Of a DNA stretch of 64,000 nucleotides, positions 8,798-64,000 are shown piece after piece. The notes beneath the pieces were generated by a model. It was given only the letters and a program-made list of their open reading frames with translations, did not search any database and had not been told where the DNA came from. Both the position numbers and the translations under genes were made by a program. Origin of the DNA: an uncultured Lachnospiraceae bacterium (lineage in GTDB: Bacteria; Bacillota; Clostridia; Lachnospirales; Lachnospiraceae); contig CACWGK010000003.1 in the NCBI GenBank assembly GCA_902760415.1, positions 217-64,216 on the forward strand, written 5' to 3'. Position 1 is the first letter of the stretch; the number at the start of each line of letters is the position of its first letter.

Positions 8798-8838
8798 TAA
8801 ATGAGTCAATAGGATACCTATTGGCTCATTTTTTTTAT
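8798..8838 (+). terminator. Rho-independent terminator of the GGGtGRT operon
   Basis: Stem AAATGAGTCAATAGG / CCTATTGGCTCATTT (one G-U pair), a 3-nt loop, then a run of 8 T. Confidence 0.8.
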
Positions 8839-8854
8839 ATAAAAATATACTGAA

Positions 8855-14166: not shown

Positions 14167-14223
14167 TTTCATTTATCAATAACTATTAATTGATAAATCT
14201 TAGGAAATGTGAGGAAAATAAAT

Positions 14224-16992
14224 ATGAGAAAGATTACGAGCCCACTTAAGAAAAGGGTTCCAAGAGAACTCGTTGGAGAGTGGCGTAAATATGTTGTTAT
14301 TGCACTTTTCCTGATTCTCATGATCGGGTTTATATCAGGAATGTATGTTGCCAACAACAGTATGCTTACTTCTGCTGATAAGAAAAAGACAGAATATAAT
14401 CTTGAGGATGGCTGTTTTGAAACTGCAGAAAAAGCGAGCAATGAGATGATCAAGGCTCTTGAAAAGGGCGAGAAAGCTGATGTTAAGCAGTATTATCTGG
14501 ACAAGGGATATGAAGAGGCAGATAAGGAAGTCAAGAAAGCAATTGATGAGAAAATCCCTGGAGAGATAGAAAAAGCTGTTAAGGATGGAATAGAGAAAGA
14601 AGTTCGTGCTCAGGCAACTGAGGGAGTTGAAGCTCAGATAGCTCAGTATTCTAATATGGGTGCTAAGGTATCGGATTCTGAGAAAGAGAAGATGATACAG
14701 GATATTGTTGATGAGAATCTTCAGGCTGCACTTGATGAATACTACGATGATGCGTATCAGACAGCATACGATAAGTTCATGGATGAGGAATATGAGGATA
14801 CCCTGGAGGATGCCAAGAAGGAAGCGTATGAAGAAGTCGAAGATACGGTAGAGGAGGAATATGAGAAAGCGGCAGATAAGTATGATCTGGATAATCCAGA
14901 TTATGAGGCTGTTCCGATAAAGATATATGAAAACTTCTACAAGGATTCCGGTGAAGATAGAGATCTCGATGGAGAAAAGGACGGTAATATTCGTGTATAT
15001 AAGGACAGAGATGATGTAGATCTTTACAGCATTCATGAGGGTAAGATGCCATCTTCTGCAGACGAGATAGCAATCGACAGAATGCATGCTGATAACGTAA
15101 AGGTTAAGATTGGCGATACTATAAGAGTGGGCGGTCAGGACTTTAAGGTCACTGCACTTGTTGCTCTAGTTAACTATAGTACACTTTATGAGAAGCCAAC
15201 GGATTCAATGTTCGATGCAATATACTTCGATGTTGCTATGGTGACTGATGAGGGCTTTGACAGAATAAAGAATAATATTCATTATAACTACGCTTGGACC
15301 TATAATGTTAAGCCTGTTGATGAGGTAGAAGAGAAAGCTTTATCTGAAAATGTTATGGCTGCGCTTATATCTCAGTCTGTAGTAAATGGCGAGGATGATG
15401 AACCTCTAGAGATAGAGAACTTCCTTCCAAATTATTCAAATAATGCGATTCATTTCGCGACAGATGATATGGGTGGTGATAAGGCGATGGCTGGAATCCT
15501 CCTATATATACTAGTGGCTGTGCTTGCATTTATCTTTGCTATAACGATAAGTAACACGATTACAAAAGAGTCTTCGGTTATTGGAACCCTTCGAGCATCG
15601 GGATATACAAAGGGTGAGCTAATCGTTCACTATATGACAATGCCTGTTCTTGTAACCTTGATAGCAGCGATAATTGGAAATATCCTGGGATATACAGTTT
15701 TCAAAAATGTAGTAATTGGAATGTATTATAATTCATACAGTCTTCCGACTTATGAAACTTATTGGACGTCAGATGCATTTATCAAGACAACTATTGTTCC
15801 AGTGATCATCATGTTTGTGATCAACCTGACAGTAATCGTTAGAATGATGCGCTTCTCGCCACTTAAGTTCCTGAGACATGATCTTAAGATAAAGAAGAGA
15901 CGTAAGGCGGTCAGACTTCCTAAGTGGAAGTTCCTTTCAAGATTTAGAGCGCGTATCTTGCTTCAGAATATACCTAACTATATAGTGCTTGTTCTGGGTA
16001 TATCATTTGTAATGCTGATGCTTTCTATGGCAGTTGGCTTCCCGGATTCGCTGGATGTGTATAAGTCAAATGTTACTGATATGATGTTTGCAAAGTATCA
16101 GACTATTCTTACCTCAACAGAGGATGAGGATGAAAATCCTATAGAGACTACGACGAAGTCTGCTGAGAAGTTCGCAATGAATGGACTTCAGTATGTTTAT
16201 AAGGATCATAAGGAATCGGTATCGGTATATGGAGTAGAAGATAAGAGTAAGTATATTGATATTCCAGATTCGCTTATGGAAAATGAGGTTTATATATCTA
16301 CTACATTTGCTGAGAAATACGGCATCGAAGTAGGTGATACATTTAAACTGGATGCCAGATACGAAAATGATGTCTACACCATGAAGGTTGCTGGAATCTA
16401 TGATTATTCAGGCGCACTTACTGTCTTTATGCCAATTGATAATTATAGAGAAATGTTTGACGAGGATGAAGATTTCTTCACAGGCTTTATGGCAAATGAA
16501 GAGATTGAAGGAATCGATGATGAGTATATAGCAACCACTATAACGGAAGATGATGTCCTGAAGATATCGAGACAGCTGGATCATTCCATGGGTTCATATA
16601 TGAAGTATTTCCAGGTGGTATGTATCATACTATCTGCGGTACTTATCTACCTGCTTACTAAGATAATCATAGAGAAGAATGAAAATGCTATCTCTATGGT
16701 AAAGATTCTAGGATATGAGAATAAAGAAATCAGCGGATTATATATGACGTCCACAACCATCGTGGTAATATTTGCTTGTATAGTTGGTATAGTACTCGCA
16801 TACTTTGGAATGGGTGAAATCTTCAAGATATATCTTATGAGTATGGAAGGATGGTTCCACTATGTTGTGACACCGCTTGGATTTGTGAAGATGTTTGTCT
16901 TCGTATTTGCAGCATATCTTATCGTAATGATTATAGATTATCGCCGTATCAAGAAGATACCGATGGACGAAGCGTTAAAACATGTAGATTAA
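14224..16992 (+). CDS. ABC transporter permease with two FtsX domains and large extracytoplasmic domains
   Basis: Two blocks of FtsX-type TM helices, each preceded by a large soluble domain. The first soluble domain carries an about 200-aa highly charged D/E/K-rich segment. GAGG RBS lies 9 nt before ATG 14224; the track start is GTG 14209. Confidence 0.85.
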   Translation: MRKITSPLKKRVPRELVGEWRKYVVIALFLILMIGFISGMYVANNSMLTSADKKKTEYNLEDGCFETAEKASNEMIKALEKGEKADVKQYYLDKGYEEADKEVKKAIDEKIPGEIEKAVKDGIEKEVRAQATEGVEAQIAQYSNMGAKVSDSEKEKMIQDIVDENLQAALDEYYDDAYQTAYDKFMDEEYEDTLEDAKKEAYEEVEDTVEEEYEKAADKYDLDNPDYEAVPIKIYENFYKDSGEDRDLDGEKDGNIRVYKDRDDVDLYSIHEGKMPSSADEIAIDRMHADNVKVKIGDTIRVGGQDFKVTALVALVNYSTLYEKPTDSMFDAIYFDVAMVTDEGFDRIKNNIHYNYAWTYNVKPVDEVEEKALSENVMAALISQSVVNGEDDEPLEIENFLPNYSNNAIHFATDDMGGDKAMAGILLYILVAVLAFIFAITISNTITKESSVIGTLRASGYTKGELIVHYMTMPVLVTLIAAIIGNILGYTVFKNVVIGMYYNSYSLPTYETYWTSDAFIKTTIVPVIIMFVINLTVIVRMMRFSPLKFLRHDLKIKKRRKAVRLPKWKFLSRFRARILLQNIPNYIVLVLGISFVMLMLSMAVGFPDSLDVYKSNVTDMMFAKYQTILTSTEDEDENPIETTTKSAEKFAMNGLQYVYKDHKESVSVYGVEDKSKYIDIPDSLMENEVYISTTFAEKYGIEVGDTFKLDARYENDVYTMKVAGIYDYSGALTVFMPIDNYREMFDEDEDFFTGFMANEEIEGIDDEYIATTITEDDVLKISRQLDHSMGSYMKYFQVVCIILSAVLIYLLTKIIIEKNENAISMVKILGYENKEISGLYMTSTTIVVIFACIVGIVLAYFGMGEIFKIYLMSMEGWFHYVVTPLGFVKMFVFVFAAYLIVMIIDYRRIKKIPMDEALKHVD

Positions 16993-17075
16993 AAAATGAG
17001 TCACTTCTTTGCTCCGACGTAACAGCTGACTCAAAAATGAGTCAGCAGTTACGTCGAAGCAAGAGGTGACTCATT
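16993..17075. repeat. Palindromic repeat element, inverted-dimer copy A
   Basis: AAAATGAGTCAC...CTGACTCAAAAATGAGTCAGCAGTTACGTCG...GGTGACTCATT. It shares TGAGTCA/TGACTCA ends and the TTACGTC-GACGTAA core with copies at 30163, 40075, 57525 and 60722. It fills the gap between convergent stop codons. Confidence 0.9.
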
Positions 17076-17078
17076 CGT

Positions 17079-18140
17079 TTATTTAACGAGTGAATCGATG
17101 ATGGAGGTTATGCTGGTTATGGAGTCTGCAAGCTCACTAGTCTGCATAGCCTCTATATATTTATCTCTGTTTGAATATACTTCTCTTATACCAGTTAGTA
17201 GTGTTTCGTTACTAACTGCCTCTTCTTCGATTACGTAACTGTAACCGCTTTTCTCAAAGGACTGAGCATTGAGAATCTGATCTCCGCGGCTTGCGGCCTT
17301 TGATAATGGAATCAGAAGATTTGGTTTTCTTATAGCAAGTAGTTCACAGATTGCATTTGCACCAGCGCGTGATATAACTACATCAGCTAGGGCAAACATG
17401 TCTGGGAGCTGTTCTTTTATAAACTCATACTGAACGTAACCTTTTTTATCTTTGATATCAGGGTTCAACTTACCTTTTCCGGTAAGATGAATGACATTGA
17501 ACTCCTTCAGTAATTCGTCAAGACATCCCCATATTGCTTTATTTATAGCAACACTTCCTGTGCTTCCGCCAACTACGAGTAGAGTTGGCTTATCATCTGT
17601 GAATCCACAGAACTCTCGGGCTTTTTCTTTGTCGCCGTTAAAAAGCTCCTGTCTGATAGGTGTACCAGTTACTGTTGCACGGTCGCTGAAGAGCTCTTTG
17701 GTCTCTGGAAAATTACAGCAGATTTTTGTAGCCTTTGGAAGAGCTATCTTGTTGGCAAGTCCTGGAGTCATATCTGATTCGTGGATAACGACAGGAATGT
17801 GCAGATGTGCTGCCATCAGTACAACAGGGACAGTGACAAATCCTCCCTTTGAGAAGACTACATCAGGTTTTATCTTCTTCAGTATTCTCTTCGCATCACC
17901 AAAGCCCTTGTTGACTCTGAAAGGATCTGTGAAGTTCTTAAGATCGAAGTAGCGTCTTAGCTTTCCTGAAGATATTCCGTAGTAAGGAATACCAATCTCT
18001 TCGATAAGTTTTTTCTCGATACCATTATATGTTCCAATATAGCTGATCTCGTATCCTAATTCCTTAAGACGAGGAATCATTGCGATATTTGGAGTTACAT
18101 GTCCGGCTGTACCACCGCCGGTAAGTATAATCTTCTTCAT
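17079..18140 (-). CDS. murG: UDP-N-acetylglucosamine--N-acetylmuramyl-(pentapeptide) pyrophosphoryl-undecaprenol GlcNAc transferase
   Basis: N-terminus MKKIILTGGGTAGHVTPNIAM and the C-terminal region ISRAGANAICELLA are typical of MurG. It is the only - strand gene. Confidence 0.9.
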   Translation of the reverse strand: MKKIILTGGGTAGHVTPNIAMIPRLKELGYEISYIGTYNGIEKKLIEEIGIPYYGISSGKLRRYFDLKNFTDPFRVNKGFGDAKRILKKIKPDVVFSKGGFVTVPVVLMAAHLHIPVVIHESDMTPGLANKIALPKATKICCNFPETKELFSDRATVTGTPIRQELFNGDKEKAREFCGFTDDKPTLLVVGGSTGSVAINKAIWGCLDELLKEFNVIHLTGKGKLNPDIKDKKGYVQYEFIKEQLPDMFALADVVISRAGANAICELLAIRKPNLLIPLSKAASRGDQILNAQSFEKSGYSYVIEEEAVSNETLLTGIREVYSNRDKYIEAMQTSELADSITSITSIIDSLVK

Positions 18141-26292: not shown

Positions 26293-29200
26293 ATGATATC
26301 GAAGTTTAGTGTCAAACGACCATACACTGTATTCGTGGTTGTGGTTGCAGTAATTGTTGTTGGAATAGTTGCGCTGATGAGAATGACAGCGGATCTTCTT
26401 CCAGATATGAATCTTCCTTATGTTGTTGTTATAACAACTGATATGGGAGCCAGTCCTGAGACAGTAGAGAAAGAGGTTACAGCCCCGATAGAAGCCTCTC
26501 TTGCTACAACGTCTAATCTTAAGAATATTCAGTCTATGTCCTATAACAGCTACTCAACGGTAATCCTTGAGTATGAACAAAGTTCTAACATGGACGCCAC
26601 AATGATTGAGATTCAGCAGAGTCTGGATCAGATAGAAGGTTCATTTGGCGATTCTATCGGTACACCGATGGTTATGCAGCTTAATCCTGACATGCTTCCA
26701 GTTATGGTTGCTGCCGCAAATGTATCAGATATGGATTCTATAGAATTAACTGACTATATCGAATCAGACATTCTTCCACAGCTTGAATCTATCGAAGGTG
26801 TTGCTTCGGTTAGTGCTACTGGTGGTGTAACTGAGACAGTTCAGGTTACCATGAACCAGGATAAGATAGATAAGCTAAATGATAAGATTATGGCGGAGAT
26901 TGATGATCAGTTCCAGGATGCTAAGGATGAACTTCAGTCTTCTAAGGAAGATATAGAGAGTGGACAGTCACAGGTATCTTCTGGAAAGAAAACTCTTGCG
27001 AATTCTGTCAGTGAAAATCTTGCAACTCTGGAAAGTACACAGATAGAGCTATACCAGACAGAAGATGAACTTACTGAACAGAAAGAGACCTACCAGGATT
27101 TATATGATACTCTTGGTACAACTATTGAAACACTGAATACAACATATGACAGTGCATGTACTCTTGCAAATGGAATAGAATCACTAAGTTCTGTTATTTC
27201 CCTATATGATCAGGGGCTTCTGGATGATACAACATTTGCTGCTACTGCAGGAATGGATATCAATACAGCTAAAGCTTCCCTGGCAACATATACTGCACAG
27301 CTCGATGCTGTAAATGCTCAGATTAAGGAAAATACTGCTTCACTTGCAGACTACGATATAACAGTAAATACATATGAGGATCTTCCAACTGCTGTAGCTA
27401 CTCTTGAAGCTAAAAGAGTTGAGATTAACACGGGTATTGAAACTATCAATACTGCTATAGAAGAGGTTGAGTCTGGAAAGACTACAACAAGCGAGGCTAT
27501 AGAAGCTCTTAACAAGACAGGTATTGAGCAGTCAATCTCACTTGCTGAGACTTCAGCAACACTCTCACAGGGACTTACTAGTATTGAGAGTGCTGAGGAT
27601 ACACTTGATGAAACACTTGAATCCACAAAGGATGCTGCAGACTTAAATAATGTACTTTCTATAGATGTACTTAACAATCTTCTTAAGGCTCAGAACTTTG
27701 AGATGCCTGCAGGATATGCTTCTGGAAAGAATGCGTCTGATGGACAGTATCTTGTTAAGATTGGCGAAGACGTTACTGATGCTGAAGAACTCTCTAAGCT
27801 TATTCTTATAGATCTAAACATGGATAGTGTTGGAGTTATTAGACTTGAGGATGTTGCTGATGTAGAGCAGGTTGATGATTCTGCTGAAGTATATGCTAAG
27901 TTAAATGGTAGTCCTGGTATGCTCATTTCATTTGAGAAGCAGACAGGTTACTCAACTGGTGATGTTACAGATGTTATCTTAGATAAGTTCGAAAGCCTTG
28001 AGAGAACAGAAGATGAGGATCTTCATTTCTCTGTTCTGATGAATCAGGGTGTCTATATAGATTTGATCGTGAAGTCAATTCTTCAGAACATGCTCCTAGG
28101 TGCTGGACTTGCAATTATCGTTCTGATCATCTTCCTTCGCGATATCAGACCTACAATTATCATAGCGTGTGCGATTCCGCTTTCGGTTATATTCGCTATC
28201 GTTCTGATGTACTTTACAGATATCTCACTTAATATCATTTCTATGTCGGGACTCACTCTGGGTATAGGAATGTTGGTGGATAACTCAATCGTTGTTATCG
28301 AAAATATCTACCGACTTCGCAAGGAAGGCGAATCTATAAAGAAGGCGGCAGTTTACGGTGCGAGCCAGGTTGCTGGAGCTATCACTTCATCAACTATGAC
28401 AACTATGTGTGTATTCCTGCCAATCGTCTTCACTGAGGGACTTACAAGACAGCTCTTCGTAGACATGGGTCTTACGATAGCATTTACTCTTACAGCTTCT
28501 CTGCTTGTGGCCCTTACACTTGTTCCAGCTATGGCACAGGGACTTCTGAAAAATGTTAAAGAGAAGGAAGAGGGCACTGATGGAGCGTTCATGCGTTTCT
28601 ATGATAAGTTCCTTAGAGCTATGCTTAAGTTTAAGCCACTTGTGTTCCTCATAATGCTGCTTCTTCTTGGAGCTTCTGTCGCACTTGCACTTTCTCGTGG
28701 TACTGAGTTTATGCCGGAGATGCAGAGTGATCAGATTAATATCTCGATGTCGGCTCCTAAGGGCGAAAAGAGAACATTTGAGGAAATGACTGGATATGCT
28801 GATGAGCTGGTTGATAGACTTATGGAGATACCTGAGATAGAAACTCTTGGTGCCATGATCGGAAATGGTACGACTATGGGTGCTCTCAATATGTCTGTTG
28901 GAGACGATGTATCTATATATGTTCTCCTCAAGGAAGATACAAAGATAACTAATTCTGAAATCATAGATAAGATCAATAAGGCTGCTGAGGGTATTGACTG
29001 TGAGGTTGATGCTAGCGCTGAGATCATGGATATGAGTATGCTGACAGGTAGCGGTATCTCAGTTATGATCAAGGGACGCGATATGCAGGTTCTTCAGAAA
29101 CTTGCTCAGGAGTCTGCGGATGCACTTGCTGCTACTGATGGTATCGAAGAGGTTGATAATGGTCTCGACAACATGACCAAGACCTTCGTCATCACGGTAG

Positions 29201-30150
29201 ATAAGAAGAAGGCGGCAGAATATGGTATGACTGTTGCGCAGGTATTCAGCACTGTATCAGCTAAGCTTGCTTCTACATCAGCAACTACCGCTATTGAGAC
29301 TGACCTTAAGGATTATGATGTATTTGTTGCTACTGATGAGCAGTCAGAGATTACTATAGATGACTTAAAGAAACTTAAGTTTGAATATACTGATAAGGAA
29401 GAAAATGAAACTAAAGAGATTCCTCTTTCTAAGATAGTTACATTCTCTGAGGCAGAGGAATTGTCACAGGTTCAGCGTGATAATCAGAACAGATACATCA
29501 GTGTATCAGGTTCACTTAAGGAAGGCTATAACATAGGTCTTGTAGGTAGAAAGGCTCAGGCAAATCTCGACAAGATTGGTGTACCAGAGGGTTACTCTAT
29601 AACTCTTGAAGGTGAGAATCAGACTATAAATGATGCGATGGAGCAGGTAATGCTTATGATGCTTCTGGCTGTAATCCTCATTTATCTGATAATGGTTGCA
29701 CAGTTCCAGAGTCTTAAGTCACCATTTATCATAATGTTTACTATACCTCTTGCCTTCACAGGTGGATTCCTGGCATTGTTCCTTACAGGAAAGGCGGTTT
29801 CAGTTATTGCTATGATAGGTTTCGTAATGCTGGCCGGTATCATCGTTAACAATGGTATCGTACTGGTTGACTATGTTAATCAGCTTAGACGTGAAGGAAA
29901 GGCTAAGAAGGATGCTATCATTGAGTCAGCTAAGACAAGACTTCGTCCTGTACTTATGACAGCTCTTACAACCATCATCTCCATGTCAACCATGGCGGTC
30001 GGTATGGGTAAGGGAACTGAGATATCACAGCCTATGGCTATCGTAGTAGTAGGTGGTATGGTCTACGGTACAATACTTACACTTATCCTGGTGCCATGTC
30101 TCTATGATGCATTCAACAAAGAACGCGACATGACAGAAGAAGAAATCTAA
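26293..30150 (+). CDS. RND-family efflux transporter permease (AcrB/SwrC-like) with a large insertion in loop 1
   Basis: 12-TM RND architecture with the conserved GIGMLVDNSIVVIENI and GIIVNNGIVLVDY motifs. It is 1285 aa, versus about 1050 for typical members. Confidence 0.9.
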   Translation: MISKFSVKRPYTVFVVVVAVIVVGIVALMRMTADLLPDMNLPYVVVITTDMGASPETVEKEVTAPIEASLATTSNLKNIQSMSYNSYSTVILEYEQSSNMDATMIEIQQSLDQIEGSFGDSIGTPMVMQLNPDMLPVMVAAANVSDMDSIELTDYIESDILPQLESIEGVASVSATGGVTETVQVTMNQDKIDKLNDKIMAEIDDQFQDAKDELQSSKEDIESGQSQVSSGKKTLANSVSENLATLESTQIELYQTEDELTEQKETYQDLYDTLGTTIETLNTTYDSACTLANGIESLSSVISLYDQGLLDDTTFAATAGMDINTAKASLATYTAQLDAVNAQIKENTASLADYDITVNTYEDLPTAVATLEAKRVEINTGIETINTAIEEVESGKTTTSEAIEALNKTGIEQSISLAETSATLSQGLTSIESAEDTLDETLESTKDAADLNNVLSIDVLNNLLKAQNFEMPAGYASGKNASDGQYLVKIGEDVTDAEELSKLILIDLNMDSVGVIRLEDVADVEQVDDSAEVYAKLNGSPGMLISFEKQTGYSTGDVTDVILDKFESLERTEDEDLHFSVLMNQGVYIDLIVKSILQNMLLGAGLAIIVLIIFLRDIRPTIIIACAIPLSVIFAIVLMYFTDISLNIISMSGLTLGIGMLVDNSIVVIENIYRLRKEGESIKKAAVYGASQVAGAITSSTMTTMCVFLPIVFTEGLTRQLFVDMGLTIAFTLTASLLVALTLVPAMAQGLLKNVKEKEEGTDGAFMRFYDKFLRAMLKFKPLVFLIMLLLLGASVALALSRGTEFMPEMQSDQINISMSAPKGEKRTFEEMTGYADELVDRLMEIPEIETLGAMIGNGTTMGALNMSVGDDVSIYVLLKEDTKITNSEIIDKINKAAEGIDCEVDASAEIMDMSMLTGSGISVMIKGRDMQVLQKLAQESADALAATDGIEEVDNGLDNMTKTFVITVDKKKAAEYGMTVAQVFSTVSAKLASTSATTAIETDLKDYDVFVATDEQSEITIDDLKKLKFEYTDKEENETKEIPLSKIVTFSEAEELSQVQRDNQNRYISVSGSLKEGYNIGLVGRKAQANLDKIGVPEGYSITLEGENQTINDAMEQVMLMMLLAVILIYLIMVAQFQSLKSPFIIMFTIPLAFTGGFLALFLTGKAVSVIAMIGFVMLAGIIVNNGIVLVDYVNQLRREGKAKKDAIIESAKTRLRPVLMTALTTIISMSTMAVGMGKGTEISQPMAIVVVGGMVYGTILTLILVPCLYDAFNKERDMTEEEI

Positions 30151-30162: not shown

Positions 30163-30245
30163 AATGAGTCACCTTCCACGTTCGACGTAAAAGGTGACTC
30201 ATTTTTGAGTCACTTTTACGTCGAACGTGCGGGGTGACTCATTTT
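30163..30245. repeat. Palindromic repeat element, inverted-dimer copy B
   Basis: AATGAGTCACCTTCCACGTTCGACGTAAAAGGTGACTCATTTTTGAGTCACTTTTACGTCGAACGTGCGGGGTGACTCATTTT, located 12 nt after the RND gene stop. Confidence 0.9.
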
Positions 30246-30339
30246 ATCTTGACAAGAAAAGTTGTGTTAGATACACTTATCTATTGTTTATGTGAAGAGT
30301 TCAAAGGAGTTTAAATATAGAAGAAATAGAGGAAGCAAT

Positions 30340-31215
30340 ATGGCTAAGAAGTTAGGAAGAAATGATGCATGTTGGTGTGGAAGTGGCAAGAAATATAAGG
30401 TGTGTCACGAAGCATTTGACCGCAAGATTGAAATGATCAAGAATCAGGGACATATAGTTCCTACACACAAGATGATCAAAACCCCAGAACAGATCGCACT
30501 CATTAAGGAGAGTGCAAAGGTTAATGTCGAATGTCTCGATGTAGTTGCAGACAAGATATGTGCCGGAATGAGCACAGAAGACATCAATCGTATAGTAAAT
30601 GAAGTATGTGAGAAGCATGGCGCAATCCCTGCTCCACTTAATTATGAAGGATTTCCAAAGAGCGTATGTACATCTATAAATGATGCTGTCTGCCACGGAA
30701 TCCCAAGTAAGGATGAGATACTTCAGGATGGCGACATCATTAATGTTGACTGTTCAACTATATTAAATGGATATTTCTCAGATTCATCTCGTATGTTCCT
30801 TATTGGAAATGTATCTGATGAGAATAAGAAACTTGTAGAAACAGTTCGTGAGAGTATATACCTTGGTCTTGAAGAAGTTAAACCTTGGAACTTCCTTGGA
30901 GATATGGGAGAGGTTGTCCATGAACACTGTAAGGCAGCTGGTTATAGCGTGGTTCGTGAGATTGGTGGACACGGTGTAGGTATCGAGTTCCACGAAGATC
31001 CATGGGTAAGCTATGTAACTAAGCGTGGAACAGAGATGCTGATGGTTCCTGGTATGATGTTCACTATCGAACCTATGGTAAACATTGGGGGACCTGAAGT
31101 ATTTGTAGATTCCGAAAATGACTGGACAGTATACACAGAGGATGGTTCTATGTCAGCTCAGTGGGAGATTCAGGTTCTTGTAACAGAAGAAGGCCACGAA
31201 ATCATTTCATGGTAG
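30340..31215 (+). CDS. map: Type I methionine aminopeptidase with N-terminal SEC-C zinc motif
   Basis: SEC-C motif CWCGSGKKYKVCH. MetAP core residues appear in DGDIINVDCS, GHGVG and EPMV contexts. A GAGGAAG RBS precedes ATG 30340; the track ORF starts at GTG 30292. Confidence 0.9.
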   Translation: MAKKLGRNDACWCGSGKKYKVCHEAFDRKIEMIKNQGHIVPTHKMIKTPEQIALIKESAKVNVECLDVVADKICAGMSTEDINRIVNEVCEKHGAIPAPLNYEGFPKSVCTSINDAVCHGIPSKDEILQDGDIINVDCSTILNGYFSDSSRMFLIGNVSDENKKLVETVRESIYLGLEEVKPWNFLGDMGEVVHEHCKAAGYSVVREIGGHGVGIEFHEDPWVSYVTKRGTEMLMVPGMMFTIEPMVNIGGPEVFVDSENDWTVYTEDGSMSAQWEIQVLVTEEGHEIISW

Positions 31216-31242
31216 TAGTTTTATATAAAAGAGGAAGTAATT

Positions 31243-39210: not shown

Positions 39211-40347
39211 ATGGAAGTAAAAGATTTTTACTACGATCTCCCTGAGGAACTGATCGCACAGGATCCGCTGGAGAAGAGAGATGAGTCTCGCTTCATGGTG
39301 ATACACCGTGATACTGGTGAGATAGAACATAGGAAGTTTCATGATATTATTGAATATTTAAATCCTGGTGACTGCCTTGTCATTAACGATACCAAGGTTA
39401 TTCCTGCACGTCTTTTGGGCGAGAAGGAAGAGACGGGAGCTGCTATAGAGGTGCTTCTTTTGAAGGACGCGTCAGAAAGATATGCAGAACTTGCAAAATC
39501 AGAGAAGAATACTCGTATCTGGGAGTGCCTTGTTAAGCCTGGTAAGAAAATGAAGCCTGGTGCCCGCGTGGTCTTCGGCAAGGACGAAGTGACTGGAGAG
39601 GCTCTGCTTAGTGCCGAGGTTATCGATACAGTTGAAGAGGGAAATCGAATCATTCGTTTTGAGTATGACGGTATCTGGGAAGAGGTGCTGGATAAGTTAG
39701 GCGAAATGCCGCTCCCACCATATATAACACATAAGCTTCAAGATAAAACTCGTTATCAGACTGTATATGCGAAAAATGAGGGTAGTGCAGCCGCTCCTAC
39801 AGCAGGTCTTCATTTCACAAGTGAGCTTCTGAAGGAGATAGAAGATAAGGGCATAAAGATTGCAAGACTTACACTACATGTAGGACTTGGTACATTTCGA
39901 CCGGTTAAGGTAGAAAAGATAGAAGACCATCACATGCATACTGAGTACTATGAGTTAACTCAGGAAGCTGCTGATATAATAAATGAGACACGCGCCAAGG
40001 GGGGCAGAGTGATCTCAGTAGGAACTACAAGTACCAGAACTCTGGAGACAATCGGAACACTTCAGGGCCTTCACAAAAATGAGTCAGCAGTTACGTCCGA
40101 CGTAAAAAGTGACTCATTTTTACAGGAGATTAAACCGGCTTCGGGCTGGACTAATATATTTATATATCCTGGATATGAGTTCAAAGTTGTAGATTCCTTA
40201 ATAACAAACTTCCATTTGCCAGAGTCAACACTTATAATGTTAGTGTCTGCTTTCTATAACAGAGACGACGTTATGGCGGCATATGAGGAAGCTGTGAAGG
40301 AGAGATATAGATTCTTCTCCTTTGGGGATGCTATGATGTTGATCTAG
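39211..40347 (+). CDS. queA: S-adenosylmethionine:tRNA ribosyltransferase-isomerase
   Basis: [50 protein letters not shown] and [18 protein letters not shown] are all QueA hallmarks. The track ORF starts upstream at 39142, but homology begins at ATG 39211. Confidence 0.95.
40075..40122. repeat. Palindromic repeat element, monomer copy D, in-frame inside queA
   Basis: AAAAATGAGTCAGCAGTTACGTCCGACGTAAAAAGTGACTCATTTTTA is translated as [16 protein letters not shown]. It is near-identical to the copy at 60721-60768. Confidence 0.9.
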
Positions 40348-55822: not shown

Positions 55823-56071
55823 ATGGGTGAGACTAGACCTGCAGTTATATCTATAATAGTTGAGAAGAGTGAGTCTGTAGAAGCACTAAATGCACTTCTT
55901 CATGAATATGCTGAATATATAGTTGGACGTATGGGTATTCCTTATCGTAAGAAGGGAATAAGTATGATAAGTATAGCTCTTGATGCGGAGCAGGATGTTA
56001 TAAATACGCTTGCGGGAAAGCTTGGCAGAATCGAGGGAGTTACTGCTAAGGCTGTATATTCAAATCACTAG
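55823..56071 (+). CDS. TM1266-family iron-only hydrogenase system regulator (small ACT-like protein)
   Basis: 82 aa. AVISIIVEKSESVEALNALLHEYAEYIVGRMGIPYRKKGISMISIALDAEQDVINTLAGKLGRIEGVTAKAVY matches my recollection of this family, which is encoded next to hydE/F/G. GGGAGG RBS lies 9 nt upstream. Confidence 0.7.
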   Translation: MGETRPAVISIIVEKSESVEALNALLHEYAEYIVGRMGIPYRKKGISMISIALDAEQDVINTLAGKLGRIEGVTAKAVYSNH

Positions 56072-56277
56072 ACTTATGATTTTATAAATTAAAAATTGTT
56101 AGATTATATTACCTTAAATTAGTGATGTCTTTCTGAAAGATATCATTTATAATATGAATGCAAATTAAATCTTTTTTAGCCAACCTGACATCGAAACCGG
56201 AGCGGGGACGTTCTGCTTGAGATAGAAGCACGTGGAAATCAGTTTAAAGCCATTCGTGGTGATATTAAGTTTTTTTC

Positions 56278-56309
56278 GCGCTCTTTCGTTTGTCGGAGGA
56301 GCGCTTTTT
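56278..56309 (+). terminator. Intrinsic terminator inside the hydF leader (candidate attenuator)
   Basis: GCGCTCTTTCG-tttgt-CGGAGGAGCGC (11 bp including 2 G-U pairs) followed by TTTTT. It ends 18 nt before the hydF ATG. Confidence 0.65.
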
Positions 56310-56327
56310 ATGTAGAGAGGAATCATT

Positions 56328-57530
56328 ATGAGTTTAAATGATACGCCATCGGGAGAACGTTTAAGAATAAGTTTTTTTGGAAAAAGAAATGCTGGTAAGT
56401 CCAGCCTTGTAAATGCGGTAACAAATCAGCAGCTGGCTGTGGTTTCAGATACTTTGGGAACTACTACGGATCCAGTGCAGAAGGCTATGGAACTTCTGCC
56501 TTTGGGACCTGTTCTTATAACAGATACTCCTGGATTTGATGATTCTGGCAAGCTTGGTGAACTCCGGGTTAAGCGTACTAAGCAGATACTGAACAAGACT
56601 GATATAGCAATTCTGGTTACGGATGCGACAAGACAGTCGGATGTGACAGAACTAGAGCTGCTTAGAATATTTGAAGAGAAGTCGATTCCATTTATCATAG
56701 CAAAGAATAAGTCGGATCTACTTGGAGAAGTGCCTGTTAACGAAGATGGCGCTGGAAATGTTATATATGTCAGTGCAACTGAAAAGACGGGGATCGAAGA
56801 GCTGAAGGAGAGAATTGGACATCTGATTCCTTCTGATGGAAATGGACTGAAACTTGTTGGCGATATTATAGAGCCGGGGCAGCTGGTGGTTCTCGTGATT
56901 CCTATAGATAAGGCGGCACCAAAGGGAAGACTTATCTTGCCACAGCAGCAGGCGATTAGAGATATACTCGATGCTGGTGCATTTGCAATCACGACTAGAG
57001 ATACAGAACTTGCTGATTTACTTGAGAAACTCAGGGCCTCTGGACAAAATCCAGACCTGGTAATCACTGATAGTCAGGCATTTGAAAAGGTTAATAAGAT
57101 TGTTCCAAAGGGTATCGAGCTTACTTCATTTTCGATACTGATGGCGCGTTATAAGGGATTCCTTGATACAGCTGTGAAGGGTGCCAGAGCGATTGACGAG
57201 CTAAGCGATGGTGACAAGATTCTGATAAGTGAAGGCTGCACGCACCATAGACAGTGTGGAGATATCGGAACTGTGAAGCTTCCGAAATGGCTATCGGAAC
57301 GAACAGGAAAGAATCTTGTGATCGAGACCACGTCGGGAGCAGATTTCCCAGACAGTCTTGAAGAATACAAGTTAGTAGTACATTGTGGCGGCTGTATGTT
57401 AAGTGCGAGAGAAATGGTATATCGCATGAAGTGTGCTGAGGATATGAACGTTCCATTCACCAACTACGGAATAGCCATAGCCTACATGAAGGGAATCCTC
57501 GATAGAACCATCGCCCCAATATATAAATGA
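56328..57530 (+). CDS. hydF: [FeFe]-hydrogenase H-cluster maturation GTPase HydF
   Basis: G1 GKRNAGKSS, G3 DTPG, G4 NKSD, and the C-terminal cluster motif EGCTHHRQCGDIG ... VHCGGC. It is colinear with Thermotoga HydF as I recall it. Confidence 0.9.
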   Translation: MSLNDTPSGERLRISFFGKRNAGKSSLVNAVTNQQLAVVSDTLGTTTDPVQKAMELLPLGPVLITDTPGFDDSGKLGELRVKRTKQILNKTDIAILVTDATRQSDVTELELLRIFEEKSIPFIIAKNKSDLLGEVPVNEDGAGNVIYVSATEKTGIEELKERIGHLIPSDGNGLKLVGDIIEPGQLVVLVIPIDKAAPKGRLILPQQQAIRDILDAGAFAITTRDTELADLLEKLRASGQNPDLVITDSQAFEKVNKIVPKGIELTSFSILMARYKGFLDTAVKGARAIDELSDGDKILISEGCTHHRQCGDIGTVKLPKWLSERTGKNLVIETTSGADFPDSLEEYKLVVHCGGCMLSAREMVYRMKCAEDMNVPFTNYGIAIAYMKGILDRTIAPIYK

Positions 57531-57608
57531 GTCACCTATCACGTCCGACGTAAATGGTGACTCAAAAATGAGTCAGCATTTACGTCGGACGTGGAAAGTG
57601 ACTCATTT
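57525..57608. repeat. Palindromic repeat element, inverted-dimer copy C (overlaps hydF stop codon)
   Basis: AAATGAGTCACCTATCACGTCCGACGTAAATGGTGACTCAAAAATGAGTCAGCATTTACGTCGGACGTGGAAAGTGACTCATTT. The hydF TGA (57528-57530) lies within the element terminus. Confidence 0.9.
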
Positions 57609-57634
57609 GGTTTGAGATTTTTTGGAGAATTAGC

Positions 57635-58723
57635 ATGAGTAATGAGAAGTTTTCATTAATAGATAAGTTGGCGGAGCAGCATTCTTTATCCCGAGCTGAG
57701 TGGACGACTCTTCTCGGAGGTGACGAGGCTTCGCTCTTTGAGAGGGCTGGGAAACTTCAGCCTGAAGAAGAGGAAGTGCTTCAGTACGCGGCTGCAAAGG
57801 CTAGGAAGGTAGCGACTTCAGTATATGGCAGTGATGTATATATCAGAGGAATTGTCGAGTTCAGCAATACCTGCAATAAGAACTGCTACTACTGCGGCCT
57901 TCGTGCCGGTAACTCGAAGCTTCAGAGATATCGCCTCACCGTGGAAGATATTCTCGAATGCTGCGAGGATGGCTATAAGTATGGATTTAGAACCTTCGTC
58001 TTGCAAAGTGGAGAAGATCCTTACTATACAACAGAAATGATATGCGACCTCGTAAAGCGTCTTAAGCAGGACTATCCAGATTGTGCTGTGACTCTTTCCC
58101 TTGGGGAGAAGTCATACGAAGAGTATAAGGCCTATCGTGAGGCGGGAGCTGATAGATATTTGCTAAGACATGAGACTGCAAATGAGGAGCATTACGGAAA
58201 ACTTCATCCAGAGAATATGTCCTGGAAGAACCGAATGAGATGTCTAAGAGATCTTAAATCTCTTGGATACCAGACAGGATGCGGAGTGATGATTGGTTCA
58301 CCGAATCAGACGGTCGAATGCCTTGTAGACGACATGATGTTTATGCAGGAGTTTGAGCCGGAAATGATAGGACTCGGTCCATTTCTTCCACATAGTGATA
58401 CACCATTTAAGGAAGAACCTAAAGGTTCATATGAGATGACGCTGTTCCTGATCAGTCTATGTCGTCTGATGCTGCCACACGCACTTATTCCAGCTACGAC
58501 AGCACTTGGAACCATAAAGCCTGACGGACGTGAACAGGGAATCCTTGCTGGCGCAAATGTCATAATGCCAAATCTTTCTCCTGTTCAGGTGAGGGACAAA
58601 TATATGCTTTACGACAACAAGATATGCACAGGAGATACGTCATCGGAGTGCCGTGATTGTATCGAGCGTCGCATGGAGCTGATTGGATATAATGTTGTAA
58701 TCTCTAGAGGAGATTACAAGTAA
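57635..58723 (+). CDS. hydE: [FeFe]-hydrogenase H-cluster radical SAM maturase HydE
   Basis: Radical SAM motif [37 protein letters not shown] and [10 protein letters not shown] closely match HydE rather than BioB or HydG. Confidence 0.9.
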
Positions 58724-58740
58724 TATATAAAGGAAATGAT

Positions 58741-59490
58741 ATGATTAAGTTTGCAATATATGGAAAAGGCGGAATAGGAAAGTCTACACTGTCGTCGAAT
58801 CTTTCTGCGGCCCTCGCAAAGAGAGGACTCACAGTTATGCAGATTGGCTGTGATCCAAAGGCTGATTCAACGTCACTTCTATGTCCGAAGGAGAAGATAA
58901 CAACTGTTCTTGATCTTGTTAGAAGTGGTAAGCCATTTACCCTGGAGGATATGGTCAAGGAAAGTACAGCAGGCGTTTTATGTGTTGAGGCAGGAGGCCC
59001 GGTTCCTGGACTTGGTTGTGCAGGCCGAGGCATTATAAATGCTTTGGAATCGCTGGAGCAGAAGGGCGCTTATGATGTGTATAAGCCTGATGTCGTCATT
59101 TACGATGTACTCGGAGACGTGGTCTGCGGAGGCTTCACTATGCCTATGCGTAAGGGCTACGCGGATAAGGTATACATAGTAACATCGGGTGAGAAGATGG
59201 CGATATACGCGGCTGCCAATATAGCTATGGCGGTTGAGAACTTCAAGAAGCGTGACTACGCAAAACTTGGTGGAATCATACTGAACTGCCGTGGAGTGGA
59301 AAATGAGATAGACAATGCTGAGACTCTTGCAAAGGATTTCAGTACAAGTGTTCTGCAGGTTATTCCAAGAAGCCCACTGTTTGAAAAGGCCGAGGCTGAA
59401 GGAAAGACTGTAATCGAACTCTTCCCGGAAAGCGATGTTGCGGAGAAGCTGCTTTCGCTTGCAGATATAGTTATCGAGCAGGGTGAATAA
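58741..59490 (+). CDS. NifH-like ATPase / nitrogenase-like reductase component 2 (copy 1)
   Basis: P-loop [10 protein letters not shown]. Both [4Fe-4S] ligand contexts are conserved (GLGCAGRG and [12 protein letters not shown]). It is only 249 aa and starts 18 nt after hydE. Confidence 0.85.
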
Positions 59491-59547
59491 GACAGATAGA
59501 ATTAGGATAGATAGATTTAAGTTATATAGAATGTAAGGAAGAAGAGT

Positions 59548-60975
59548 ATGCTGGAAGCGTTACATACAAAAGAAAATCGAATACCAGAACCAGTTCTTCT
59601 TAAAGATATAGACTTTGAGACCCCATTTTACGAAGGACTTCAGTATAATCCACCAGCGCGTGGTGTGTGGAATATAGTCCACACAGGTATGCTGATTCCA
59701 GAGGCACATCAGGTATATGTCTGTGCACAGGGGTGTCTCAGGGGTGTTATACTCACGGCGGCTGAGATGAATCTGATGGATAGGATGTCCTGGGTATCAC
59801 TTCGTGAGAAGGATATGTGGAATGGAGAAATGGAGTCCCGCGTGGTTGAAGGCGTTGCTCACATAGTGAGTCAAATGGAGAACCGCCCAAGATGTATACT
59901 TGTTTACCTTAGCTGTATGCATATGTTTGAGGGCTGTGACTTCAAGGTGATTGCTGATGAGCTGTCCGAGAGATTTCCTGGTACAACATTTGTTGACTGC
60001 TATATGACGCCAACTATGAGAAAAAGTATCTCGCCGGACGCTATGATGAAGGCTAGTCTCTATGATCCGATAATTCCTCTACCTAAGAAGGAGAATCTGG
60101 TGGGACTCGTTGGCTGCGATAGAGAGACAGACAGAACCTCAGATATCTTCGAGATTGCAAAGCTGGCAGGACGCGACATATGGGAGATTAATTCCTGCGA
60201 GACTTATGATCAGTACCTAGAACTTGGTAGTGCTGCGCGTCTTATATCATATCTTCCGGTCGCAAATGTGGGAGTCAGAAAGCTGGCTGGTCGAATCGGT
60301 GCTGAGTGGAAATATCTACCTATAAGCTACGACTTCGAGGAATGCAAGGAAAATGTATGGCAGCTGGCAGAGTTCCTGACAGGGACTGAACTAAGAGGAC
60401 AGCAAGCAGATAAAGAGAAGAATGTTATAGAACATATTGAGGAATATATCTCTGAAAAGAGTAAACTGGCGGACGAAGCATTCAAAAAAGCTCATGCGAA
60501 GATTAAGGATACACCGATAGTTATAGATTATTCGGCAACCCCTCGTCCTCTCGGACTTGCGCTGCTGCTTACAAAGTATGGATTTAATGTAACTACCATT
60601 TATACAGATATATTCCAGAAGGAAGAACGTGCAGCGTACGAAGAACTTCTGGAGCTGAGGCCAGAAATGAAGATATATTCCACCATGGACCCAGCCATGC
60701 GATTTGCTGACAACGAATATGAAAATGAGTCAGCATTTACGTCGGACGTAAAAAGTGACTCATTTTTAAAGGGGGATAAGATACTAGCTATCGGTCAGAA
60801 GGCAGCATACTTTGTGCATACACCGTATTTCGTAAATATTGCTGATGGCGGTGGAATGTATGGAATCGACGGACTTAGACGAATGGCAGAGGAATTGCTG
60901 GATGCCTATAAGAAAACAAAGGATACTAAGAAGTTGATAAGTCATAAGGGTATCGGTTGCGCCAGCTGTTTGTAG
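59548..60975 (+). CDS. Nitrogenase component-1-type (NifD/K/E/N, BchN/B-like) oxidoreductase subunit
   Basis: 475 aa. The Cys motifs VCAQGC and LSCMHMFEGCDF sit where component-1 proteins carry cluster ligands. The LVGLVGCDRE...DIFEIAKLAG pattern is typical of the family. Confidence 0.7.
   Translation: MLEALHTKENRIPEPVLLKDIDFETPFYEGLQYNPPARGVWNIVHTGMLIPEAHQVYVCAQGCLRGVILTAAEMNLMDRMSWVSLREKDMWNGEMESRVVEGVAHIVSQMENRPRCILVYLSCMHMFEGCDFKVIADELSERFPGTTFVDCYMTPTMRKSISPDAMMKASLYDPIIPLPKKENLVGLVGCDRETDRTSDIFEIAKLAGRDIWEINSCETYDQYLELGSAARLISYLPVANVGVRKLAGRIGAEWKYLPISYDFEECKENVWQLAEFLTGTELRGQQADKEKNVIEHIEEYISEKSKLADEAFKKAHAKIKDTPIVIDYSATPRPLGLALLLTKYGFNVTTIYTDIFQKEERAAYEELLELRPEMKIYSTMDPAMRFADNEYENESAFTSDVKSDSFLKGDKILAIGQKAAYFVHTPYFVNIADGGGMYGIDGLRRMAEELLDAYKKTKDTKKLISHKGIGCASCL
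60721..60768. repeat. Palindromic repeat element, monomer copy E, in-frame inside the Nif-like gene
   Basis: GAAAATGAGTCAGCATTTACGTCGGACGTAAAAAGTGACTCATTTTTA is translated as [16 protein letters not shown]. Confidence 0.9.
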
Positions 60976-61011
60976 AATAAAAGATAGAAAAAAAGATAGA
61001 AAGAATCAGAA

Positions 61012-62283
61012 ATGAATCAAACTGCGAGAAGAATATCAATATATGCTGCGGACACATCGGGATTTTGCTCTGCTCTATATGAGTATGGCGGAATGACCGT
61101 AATTCATGATGCATCCGGCTGCAACTCGACATATACAACTCACGACGAACCTCGCTGGTACGATAAGGACAGTATGATGTACATATCAGGGTTCACTGAG
61201 AAAGACGCAATCATGGGAAATGACGAGCGCTTTGTCCATGATCTTGTACTGGCGGCAAAGGAATTAAATCCGAAGTTTATCGCTATATGTGCGTCACCTC
61301 TTCCTGCTATGACCGGCGTCGATCTTGAAGCAATAGCCTACGAGGTTGAAGCAGAGACAGGCATACCAAGCTTTAATGTGAGAACAAATGGAATGCAGAG
61401 CTATATAACAGGCGCGGGAAATGCATTTGTGGAGCTCGCTAAGCATTTTACAAAACCTGTAAATAAGGTAAGACCACTAAGGACTGGTTCAAATGTCGGA
61501 CTCCCTGGAGCGGCAGAAGTGCTGGTAAATGTACTCGGCCTCACACCACTGGATTTCCCTCTTGAAGGTACAGTGTGGGCTCTTAGAAAATGGCTCGCAG
61601 AACATGAACTGATGGTAAATGCAACCGTCGGCATGGATACGTCCTTAGAACAGATTGAAGTTCTTGCCGAAGCTGATGTAAATCTGGTTGTTAGTTCAGT
61701 CGGCATGCCGCTGGCGGAGTATCTATATAATGAGTATGGAATCCCGTACGTAGTGGGCGCTCCATTTGGAGATATTAAGTCCACATCGATTTTAGGATTT
61801 AATGTAAAGGTGGCAGCGACTGATGGCGAGAATGCACTCAGTTGTAAAATGCTGAATCCTTGCGGCAGAAAGATAGCAATCATTGGTGAGAGCGTAACAT
61901 CAAGATCCCTCGCAAATGCAATCTATCAGGAGTTCAACATCTCTGCAAGAGTTCTGGAAAGCGTGGGGGATGGATTTATGCAGGCCCTAAATAAGCTAGT
62001 GGATCAGAAGCTCTGGGCAGGACAATTCGATAATGATATTAGCGAACAGCTGGATGATGTGTCCTGCGACGATGAGGATATACTGGAGCAGGAAATCCAG
62101 AAGTCCGATATAATAATCGGCGACCCGCTCTTTGAACCGATATGCTACGGAAAGACATTTATAAGACTTCCTCATATGGCATTTTCGGGAAGATGTTTCA
62201 CTAAGGAAGAAGTGCAACTCATTGGCACGCCACTTAGGGAGACATCCGTTGGAAAAGCTTTAGCAAAGACTCTGGGAAAGTAA
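61012..62283 (+). CDS. Nitrogenase component-1-type oxidoreductase subunit (partner)
   Basis: 423 aa. VIHDASGCNS (the H-x3-G-C motif) and AICASPLPAMTGVD (the C...G-x-D motif) are characteristic of the Oxidored_nitro family. Confidence 0.75.
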   Translation: MNQTARRISIYAADTSGFCSALYEYGGMTVIHDASGCNSTYTTHDEPRWYDKDSMMYISGFTEKDAIMGNDERFVHDLVLAAKELNPKFIAICASPLPAMTGVDLEAIAYEVEAETGIPSFNVRTNGMQSYITGAGNAFVELAKHFTKPVNKVRPLRTGSNVGLPGAAEVLVNVLGLTPLDFPLEGTVWALRKWLAEHELMVNATVGMDTSLEQIEVLAEADVNLVVSSVGMPLAEYLYNEYGIPYVVGAPFGDIKSTSILGFNVKVAATDGENALSCKMLNPCGRKIAIIGESVTSRSLANAIYQEFNISARVLESVGDGFMQALNKLVDQKLWAGQFDNDISEQLDDVSCDDEDILEQEIQKSDIIIGDPLFEPICYGKTFIRLPHMAFSGRCFTKEEVQLIGTPLRETSVGKALAKTLGK

Positions 62284-62315
62284 CATTTTACTAAGATAAT
62301 AGAGGTATAAGATAA

Positions 62316-63071
62316 ATGATTAAAATTGCGATATATGGCAAAGGTGGAATCGGAAAGTCTACAGTTACATCAAATCTTTCGGCCGCACTTGCTTCGCTTG
62401 GTAAAAAGGTAATACAGATTGGCTGTGATCCTAAGGCGGATTCTACTGCAAATCTTCTGTCGGGAAGCCCTGTAACTCCAGTTATGAATTATATGCGTGA
62501 TACAGGAGAGGAACCAACAAGCCTTGATGAGATAGCAAAGGAAGGCTTTGGCGGAGTAGTCTGCATAGAGACAGGCGGCCCAACTCCAGGTCTTGGCTGT
62601 GCAGGTAGAGGTATCATTACCACATTTTCCCTCCTGGAAGAGTTAGAGCTCTACAAGAAGTACCAGCCGGATGCTGTTCTATATGATGTTCTAGGTGACG
62701 TAGTATGTGGTGGTTTTGCGGCACCAATCAGAGAAGGCTATGCTGATAAGGTTCTCATAGTTACGTCTGGAGAAAAAATGGCGCTTTATGCGGCCAACAA
62801 CATAAATACGGCAGTTAAGAACTTTGAAGACAGAAGCTACGCAAAAGTTCGCGGTATAGTAATGAACAGGCGTGCTGTTGAAGGAGAAGAGGAGAAGGTT
62901 CGCGCCTTCGCAGAGTCTTCAGGGCTTGATATAGTAGCTGATATCCCACGTACAAATGATATTATTCATTACGAGGATATGGGCAAGACAGTAATCGAAG
63001 GTGATCCTAGCCTTGAAGTAAGTAAGAGATTCCTTGCGCTGGCTCAGCTCCTTATCGATGAAGATGAATAA
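62316..63071 (+). CDS. NifH-like ATPase / nitrogenase-like reductase component 2 (copy 2)
   Basis: [18 protein letters not shown] and [12 protein letters not shown] are all conserved. It is 251 aa and a paralogue of 58741-59490. Confidence 0.85.
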
Positions 63072-63117
63072 ACAAACTAAAGAATAAACAAGCTAAAGAA
63101 TGGATATATTTTAGATA

Positions 63118-64000
63118 ATGACAAATGCATTTTATAAAACAACTAAAGAATTGGCAGAACTAGGACTGTCAGGTCTTCCGGGGGAACTTAAGTCAAGCGA
63201 CCATTTGATCTATAGTTCACCAGCAACCCTTTACTTCAATTCGCCTGGTGCTAAGGGGTTTGGAGTTAAAAGGGCCGGACTTGCCGTGCCTGAATCAGTC
63301 ATGCTTCTGGTATCACCGGGATGCTGCGGTAGAAATACATCACTCTTTAGAACAGCTCCAGAATATAAGGATAAGTTCTTCTTTCAACTTCTAGATGATA
63401 CTGATATTGTAACAGGCCGACACCTTACGAAGATTCCACAGGCAGCTGAGGAATTACTTCAAACACTTGAAATAAGTGGCAAGGCAAGACCTTCAGCAAT
63501 AATGATATGCATCACCTGCGTAGATGCACTTCTCGGAACAGATATGGAGCGAGTATGCCGTAAGGTTACAGAGAAGACAGGCGTTCCTGCAGTTGCATGT
63601 TATATGTATGCACTCACTAGAGAGAAGAGGCTTCCACCTATGGCGGCAGTTAGAACGAGTGTATATTCTCTGCTGGAAAAAGTTGAGAAGAGGAACTCTG
63701 CCGATATAAATATCCTGGGATACTTTACTCCACTATTTGATTCGTCGGAAATCTATCCGCTTATGAAATCAATCGGTGTTAAGAATATTCGCGAACTGTC
63801 ACGTGCGAAGACATTTGAAGAATATAAGGAAATGTCGAAAGCAAACTTTAGTCTTGTGCTAAATCCAGAGGCACGTGCGGCGGCGCAGGATATGCAGGAT
63901 AGACTGGGAATACCATTTATCGAGCTCCTTCGGCTCTATAGAATAGATAAGATTCATAATCAATATAAGTCATTGGGAGATGCGCTGGGAGCAAATCTTG
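63118..64000 (+). CDS. Nitrogenase component-1-type oxidoreductase subunit (3' end outside window)
   Basis: This gene is not in the ORF track because it has no stop in the window. By manual translation, the frame is open from ATG 63118 to base 64000: MTNAFYKTTKELAELGLSGLPGELK...LLVSPGCCGRNTS...IMICITCVDALLGTD...INILGYFTPL.... The start codon choice is uncertain. Confidence 0.65.
   Translation, partial: MTNAFYKTTKELAELGLSGLPGELKSSDHLIYSSPATLYFNSPGAKGFGVKRAGLAVPESVMLLVSPGCCGRNTSLFRTAPEYKDKFFFQLLDDTDIVTGRHLTKIPQAAEELLQTLEISGKARPSAIMICITCVDALLGTDMERVCRKVTEKTGVPAVACYMYALTREKRLPPMAAVRTSVYSLLEKVEKRNSADINILGYFTPLFDSSEIYPLMKSIGVKNIRELSRAKTFEEYKEMSKANFSLVLNPEARAAAQDMQDRLGIPFIELLRLYRIDKIHNQYKSLGDALGANL

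Follow-up and report, generated by a model that had tools for sequence, protein, structure and literature searches.

Short imperfect palindromes of the REP/REPIN type, with their RAYT (TnpA_REP, an IS200-like Y1 transposase), have been described in Escherichia, Pseudomonas and Stenotrophomonas; they are present in high copy number and mostly occur as inverted doublets that fold into a long hairpin (PMC3116915, PMC3733652, PMC5581495). They follow ORFs in tandem or convergent gene arrangements, with termini that often provide the stop codon; target duplication is not evident, and a Y1 transposase gene may be flanked by the repeats (PMC3116915, PMC5581495). Di Nocera et al. reported REPs between unidirectional and convergent ORFs, REP termini supplying stop codons and REPs located inside genes of several species, where occasional copies encode extra residues; RPE elements were treated there as CGTC-tagged relatives (PMC3733652). 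Bertels et al. found Group 1 RAYTs in Clostridia with a weak association with repeats (PMC5581495). Quentin et al. described a subclass of Y1 proteins bearing a helix-turn-helix (HTH), subclass 2.1, for which no REPs were reported (PMC6006769). Our literature search retrieved no description of repeats of this kind from Lachnospiraceae.

The family described here shares the above features of the repeats themselves, and a candidate Y1 gene flanked by such repeats is seen in Lachnospiraceae bacterium AC2031. It differs in four respects. The host is a Firmicute, a rumen Lachnospiraceae; the ends are TGAGTCA/TGACTCA and do not carry the GTAG/CGTC end tag that defines the REP superfamilies (PMC3733652); each unit is a full palindrome with identical 7-nt ends; and the 266-aa candidate transposase of AC2031 falls short of the RAYT cutoff of NCBIfam and carries a C-terminal extension that is weakly similar to HTH domains. 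It resembles the HTH-bearing subclass 2.1, for which no REPs were reported (PMC6006769).

Rickettsia palindromic elements (RPEs) are the second point of comparison. Like the in-frame copies considered here, they lie in frame within functional, unrelated genes as a tolerated peptide segment, and in stop-free registers only. They belong to another phylum and are probably unrelated in sequence; the present family has a candidate transposase, and its in-frame copies are a small minority. RPE-1 measures about 100-150 nt, as compared to 37-48 nt here, and given the different phylum and this unit length, membership of the RPE family itself is implausible. Bacterial MITEs with in-frame copies are the third: Nezha of cyanobacteria, Chunjie of Geobacter and ERIC of enterobacteria are small, non-autonomous and sometimes read as protein. 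These elements have longer bodies, target site duplications and parents of the DDE type, none of which was found here.

We analysed a window of 64 kb from an uncultured Lachnospiraceae bacterium, in which a 48-nt palindrome lies within a nitrogenase-like gene. The element works like REP/REPIN sequences with RPE-like in-frame copies, a known type of event in a new bacterial group. We consider it likely that these 48 nt represent a member of a REP/REPIN-like family of rumen Lachnospiraceae that survived insertion in frame, with mobilisation probably by a Y1 enzyme. More tentatively, this may be the first REPIN-type population described in Firmicutes, one with symmetric TGAGTCA ends, perhaps driven by an HTH-bearing Y1 protein of the REP-less class, and with in-frame copies still polymorphic among co-existing rumen strains (475- and 459-aa alleles). 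In any case, the findings show that REP-like hairpins and their occasional conversion into protein sequence extend beyond Proteobacteria and Rickettsia and also shape the genomes of abundant rumen Clostridia.

Anatomy and placement of the palindromic family

The window holds eight units at five sites (Table 1), and the motif pair occurs five times as compared to none in shuffled sequence. By consensus, the unit is an imperfect hairpin of 35-37 nt consisting of TGAGTCA, a variable arm, the core ACGTCNGACGT, a second variable arm and TGACTCA, with A-runs outside its left end and T-runs outside its right end; CGTC/GACG appears only at the apex of the hairpin. A doublet is a unit followed by its own reverse complement across a 4-nt spacer, which is AAAA in 56 and TTTT in 48 of the 105 doublets listed, and it folds as a single long hairpin of about 38 bp (-57 to -61 kcal/mol, z about -13). 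The two arms match each other, as in REPINs whose arms evolve together: complementarity to the own partner is 11.99 vs. 10.58 (sd 0.32) to shuffled partners, and none of 200 shuffles reaches as high. Self-complementarity is higher in single units (8.1) than in doublet units (4.4). In the leftmost doublet of the window, the arms show compensatory departures from the consensus core.

Table 1. Positions of palindromic units, host genes and related loci (plain numbers refer to the window)
Feature	Position	Strand	Details
Intergenic inverted doublet	16995-17075	.	Between convergent ORFs 14209-16992 (+) and 17079-18140 (-); -57 kcal/mol
Intergenic inverted doublet	30163-30243	.	After ORF 26293-30150; -60.8 kcal/mol; closed in six of six frames
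queA host gene	39211-40347	+	378 aa from likely true start; Pfam Queuosine_synth, 490 bits
Intragenic single unit, queA	40075-40122	+	Second intragenic copy; 16-aa peptide; similar to 60721-60768
Intergenic inverted doublet	57526-57607	.	Overlaps hydF stop codon, upstream of radical SAM gene; -60.2 kcal/mol, z = -13
Nitrogenase component-1-like host gene	59548-60975	+	Intact, 475 aa; Pfam PF00148 Oxidored_nitro, 47.5 bits
Intragenic single unit, nitrogenase-like gene	60721-60768	+	Palindrome 60722-60766; core unit 60726-60762
459-aa allele	L131:11132-11218, also L132, L133		Found in rumen strains; correspond to 60679-60813
Filled/empty pair 1	L125:5986-6022 (filled) vs. window 31210-31216, about 31213 (empty)	+	98% identical flanks
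Filled/empty pair 2	L067:905-978 vs. L061 and L021		83-nt doublet in L067
Filled/empty pair 3	L057 and L118 vs. L069
Second-family copies, AC2031	L002:140-209, L002:4428-4460, L004:7520-7552
Candidate transposase, AC2031	L002:1610-2410		266 aa; Pfam Y1_Tnp (IS200-like), 55.7 bits, cutoff 23

A genome scan detected the family in AC2031, a rumen isolate of a sister species, and a metagenome scan returned at least 120 stretches. Plasmid and phage collections gave no match to the element. The matches listed, in 1.2 Mb of related contigs, comprise at least 292 units, arranged as 105 doublets, 79 single units and one triplet. Because a metagenome pattern search seeded this census and related strains enter it repeatedly, its numbers are indicative, not exact. 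The sole genome-scan match outside Lachnospiraceae, in Amycolatopsis kentuckyensis (L001:4103-4139), was rejected as a family member: it is a lone palindrome that fits the pattern with different arms and is probably a chance occurrence.

Most copies are inverted doublets, and they follow closely on the stop codons of genes in tandem or convergent arrangement. Under a simple ORF model, the neighbours among the matches listed are tandem genes at 103 sites, convergent genes at 21 and divergent genes at 3. The element begins a median of 6 nt after the upstream stop codon, and in 17 of the matches listed the gene terminates at the TGA of TGAGTCA. In-frame copies amount to about five host genes, as compared to about 185 clusters among the matches listed. 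The original prediction held that all three intergenic copies are dimers; this is true of the window and is only a tendency beyond it, since most of the 79 single units listed in the 1.2 Mb are intergenic as well.

Such a placement would also be expected of a regulatory hairpin selected by the host, i.e., a 3' end stabiliser, a terminator or a protein-binding site, in which case the intragenic copies would act on the queA and nitrogenase-like mRNAs, e.g., through internal attenuation or through processing, and would not be neutral. The short distance to stop codons and the near-absence between divergent genes agree with this reading, as do the stable hairpins followed by T-runs, intact in both intragenic copies. 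We nevertheless regard it as unlikely. A terminator consensus scan of positions 56000-64000 flagged none of the copies, and the stems are A+T-rich with internal mismatches as compared to the G+C-rich stem and T-run of an intrinsic terminator. Rfam contains no family for the element and gave only sub-threshold matches to miRNA hairpins. A regulatory role would explain the retention of copies and leave their spread unexplained. Moreover, the sites vary among strains that are otherwise nearly identical, and this speaks against any single one of them being essential.

Mobility and a candidate Y1 transposase

Three pairs of filled and empty sites with 97-98% identical flanks were found in related contigs (Table 1). 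In the first, a single unit within 48 extra nucleotides lies inside the stop codon of ORF 30292-31215, changing TGG TA^G to TGG TAA TGA GTCA..., so that TAG is replaced by TAA followed by TGA. No target duplication is evident at the three pairs beyond a 1-nt ambiguity. At least seven sites differ in copy structure: a doublet in one contig corresponds to a single unit in another, and the difference is exactly one unit plus spacer. Five of these sites were aligned, and four of them have identical flanks. The rightmost doublet of the window is present in strain L131 and missing from the syntenic spacer of AC2031. On this comparison of contigs, the presence/absence and monomer/doublet differences within flanks of 97-100% identity show recent mobility.

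The candidate for the mobilising enzyme comes from AC2031. Its best NCBIfam match is REP_Tyr_transpos with 43.6 bits, below the RAYT cutoff of 80. The protein has an HVH motif, which aligns with HIH in an IS200 transposase of known structure, a sequence search of the PDB returned only a weak IS200 match (2EC2, E = 0.046), and the C-terminal extension gave only weak HTH matches. Doublets lie directly on either side of the gene, at 1524-1600 and 2425-2501, and a Y1 gene with doublets or units on both sides also occurs in the metagenome contigs L028 and L043. Neither the window nor the examined contigs of the window's own species yielded a Y1 transposase gene, so the link between the transposase and the window copies is drawn from one sister lineage. 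We suggest that the copies move as single-stranded hairpins through an IS200-like Y1 (HUH) transposase, a process that would probably leave no target duplication. As AC2031 is a cultured isolate carrying the candidate transposase, this mechanism is testable, and the strain would offer a natural, culturable system in which to watch REP gain, REP loss and the remodelling of protein loops.

A classical MITE would be a deletion derivative of an insertion sequence with a DDE transposase, which acts on the terminal inverted repeats and moves the element by cut-and-paste. Here the termini, AAAATGAGTCA/TGACTCATTTT, are indeed perfect inverted repeats, and end recognition by a transposase would fit the existence of a second family with the same termini around the core GGCTTTGAGCC. 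We consider this origin very unlikely, given that target site duplication is not evident at the three filled/empty pairs and that units of 35-37 nt are below the usual size of a MITE. In addition, no insertion sequence bearing these ends was found in the 1.2 Mb of related contigs, where the only transposase associated with the repeats is the Y1 protein.

The second family was observed in AC2031 (Table 1); it also forms doublets (-39.9 kcal/mol), and its shared TGAGTCA/TGACTCA ends suggest that the ends are the recognised part. At 8799-8846 of the window, AAATGAGTCAATAGGATACCTATTGGCTCA followed by T8 forms a hairpin of -19 kcal/mol that has the left end AATGAGTCA in common with the family and a different core. 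This hairpin follows ORF 7730-8749 and resembles an intrinsic terminator.

In-frame copies in unrelated genes

The original prediction placed the element in frame within a nitrogenase-like component-1 gene. This was confirmed: the quoted 48 nt are exact, the ORF of 475 aa is intact, and it matches Oxidored_nitro. Read directly, 60721-60768 is GAAAATGAGTCAGCATTTACGTCGGACGTAAAAAGTGACTCATTTTTA, a near-perfect palindrome of the form AAAA-TGAGTCA...ACGTCGGACGT...TGACTCA-TTTT with a predicted RNA hairpin of -21.3 kcal/mol (z = -6.6). In the host frame it specifies 16 amino acids, residues 392-407, and the intact ORFs suggest that the inserts are translated.

The AlphaFold model of the 475-aa host resembles NifDK, NifEN, VnfK and methylthio-alkane reductase in Foldseek (TM about 0.57). 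Its pLDDT falls below 50 at exactly residues 392-408, i.e., the insert, and reaches 85 within 10 residues beyond. In an alignment of 20 nitrogenase-like homologues, from 99% down to 47% identity, the stretch is present only in the 99% homologue; the insertion site is a variable-length loop between MDPAMRFA and ILAIGQKAAYF, and the conserved C-terminal motifs downstream are still present. At the DNA level, the unit is missing from the nitrogenase-like genes of AC2031 and L130. The protein would have gained a hydrophilic, unstructured loop of 15-16 residues between MDPAMRFADNEYE and KGDKILAIGQ. The peptide is probably a by-product of the DNA palindrome without a function of its own.

The second intragenic copy lies in queA. 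Among all positions of the window, it is the only other match to 60721-60768 at three or fewer mismatches, and shuffled windows gave none. The two units were said to agree at 14 of 16 residues and 43 of 48 nt; the first figure stands, while the second turned out to be 45 of 48, three nucleotides being different. As claimed, the host proteins are unrelated (Oxidored_nitro vs. Queuosine_synth in Pfam), and both copies are monomers in the codon phase AAT GAG TCA and in the same orientation (GCAnTT left, AAAAAG right). The mechanically called queA ORF begins at 39142; database proteins of 99-100% identity cover 94% of it and, one truncated entry excepted, have 378 aa. The queA unit (hairpin -19.5 kcal/mol, z about -6.6) corresponds to a 15-residue gap with respect to Bacillus subtilis QueA (1YY3) and is missing in AC2031 QueA, and it is present in all of the nearest variants that the alignment sampled (two at 99% identity plus a truncated entry). 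For both host proteins, the insert is missing from orthologues at 79% and 89% identity and from all more distant ones.

QueA of related Lachnospiraceae has two hot spots of unrelated, often repetitive insertions, GAGVGTRTE-type repeats among them, at alignment columns 130-190 and 395-455 (P0163, P0164, P0196, P0217 and P0237). The proteins range from 347 to 461 aa among relatives, and the window's unit falls in the second hot spot.

The 14 of 16 like residues, hydrophilic in character, could in principle stem from selection, in both enzymes, for a motif or small domain of the protein. This has practically no chance of being correct and is already contradicted: the nucleotide identity of 45/48 is equally high to non-coding copies, the DNA is palindromic, predicted disorder covers the peptide in the AlphaFold model, and there are strains in which most of it is deleted. 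A shared conserved domain is ruled out, the peptide being missing from all orthologues of both families and the same DNA occurring at well over 100 intergenic sites. What remains is one mobile palindrome that occupies an identical stop-free register in two unrelated genes, which bears out the proposed likeness to RPEs. This also presents an annotation hazard, since a common 16-residue stretch in unrelated proteins may be derived from a repeat and not from homology.

Six-frame translation explains the register. Both intragenic copies of the window are open in two of six frames, namely +0 and one minus-strand frame, which encode near-identical NES..TSDV..DSF peptides. One frame per strand has TGA at both termini, in agreement with the claim that the other register holds TGA, and another usually has TAA, from ACGTAA. 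Being palindromic, the unit can be read through this register in either orientation with nearly the same peptide, and orientation is not constrained. The proposed selection against stop-introducing frames and orientations consequently stands for frames and falls for orientation.

Among the matches listed, single units have on average 2.09 open frames of six and doublets 0.51, as compared to 2.4-2.6 and 1.32, respectively, in shuffled sequence. The shuffled values are the higher ones, so the family has not been shaped for translation, and selection filters individual insertions. The usual 4-nt spacer puts the second unit of a doublet in the TAA frame, and 70 of the 105 doublets listed are closed in all six frames, which is why in-frame survivors are mostly monomers. 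Insertions into coding sequence would normally be lost, and the few that survive would do so under three conditions: a single unit in the one stop-free register per strand (AAT GAG TCA...), a net length change that is a multiple of three, and a site in a variable, disordered surface loop or linker. If correct, this amounts to a simple rule for intragenic survival, combining a single unit, one stop-free register and a disordered loop.

The survey of further intragenic copies agrees with the register bias. Besides queA and the nitrogenase-like gene, the matches listed include a Wzt-type ABC ATPase and a SASA esterase as in-frame hosts, and a large membrane protein is a probable fifth, with the copy in its N-terminal tail; all five use the NES...DSF register. 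In the Wzt-type ATPase, the copy lies in the linker preceding Wzt_C, one strain having a single unit and another a direct doublet with a 5-nt spacer and both units in register. Intragenic copies are therefore monomers in the window, as had been claimed, and not generally, as in-frame doublets exist (e.g., L008:1724-1802). The membrane-protein tail contains a second unit whose translation uses the other frame, with GTAA changed to GTAC. The SASA esterase (L024:359-1342; L113:1521-3404, minus strand) has a variable-length Thr/Gly-rich linker (TTGTTTG...) about 17 residues upstream of the unit. Four other candidate hosts (L026, L054, L019 and L121) were rejected, as their copies lie upstream of true starts or in spurious ORFs.

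A HMMER search with the 16-position profile against 1.84 billion representatives gave four matches at E <= 0.001, a search in which short matches within long proteins never become significant. Three of them, of 31-41 aa, look spurious, and the fourth is one 102-aa fragment. A tripled-peptide profile, used to search for host proteins, returned three tiny ORFs only.

Alleles of the nitrogenase-like gene and its neighbourhood

Alleles of 459 aa carry a 48-nt in-frame deletion and are 98% identical in nucleotides to the window allele. They were found in a 90%-identity cluster whose sources include bovine rumen assemblies. Most of the element is gone from these alleles, which retain ACTCATTTTTA, its right end, and lack the host codons DNEYE that are conserved in other species. 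The retained right end and the loss of DNEYE indicate that an allele with the element later suffered in-frame deletion, and that the 459-aa alleles do not represent the ancestral empty site. The alignment of Nif-like orthologues proposed for defining the empty site thus established the absence of the insert and not the exact site: neither intragenic copy has a reconstructable ancestral site, as both loops have diverged. Relative to the window, AC2031 shows a difference of 42 nt in queA and one of 24 nt in the nitrogenase-like gene, in both cases within diverged loops.

The gene order at 56328-63071 is hydF, a radical SAM gene, two tandem sets each with a NifH-like and two Oxidored_nitro genes, hypF, a PARG-like gene and hypCDE; the observation also covers the whole of L007 and L131. 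The component-1-like gene pair is flanked by NifH-like genes, with HydF and the radical SAM gene upstream. The region appears to encode a nitrogenase-like system of rumen Lachnospiraceae amid hydrogenase maturation genes. The spacer between the two component-1-like genes (60976-61011) consists of a short GATAGAA tandem repeat and an A-run, and measures 36 nt in the window vs. 85 nt in strain L131 (L131:11381-11465).
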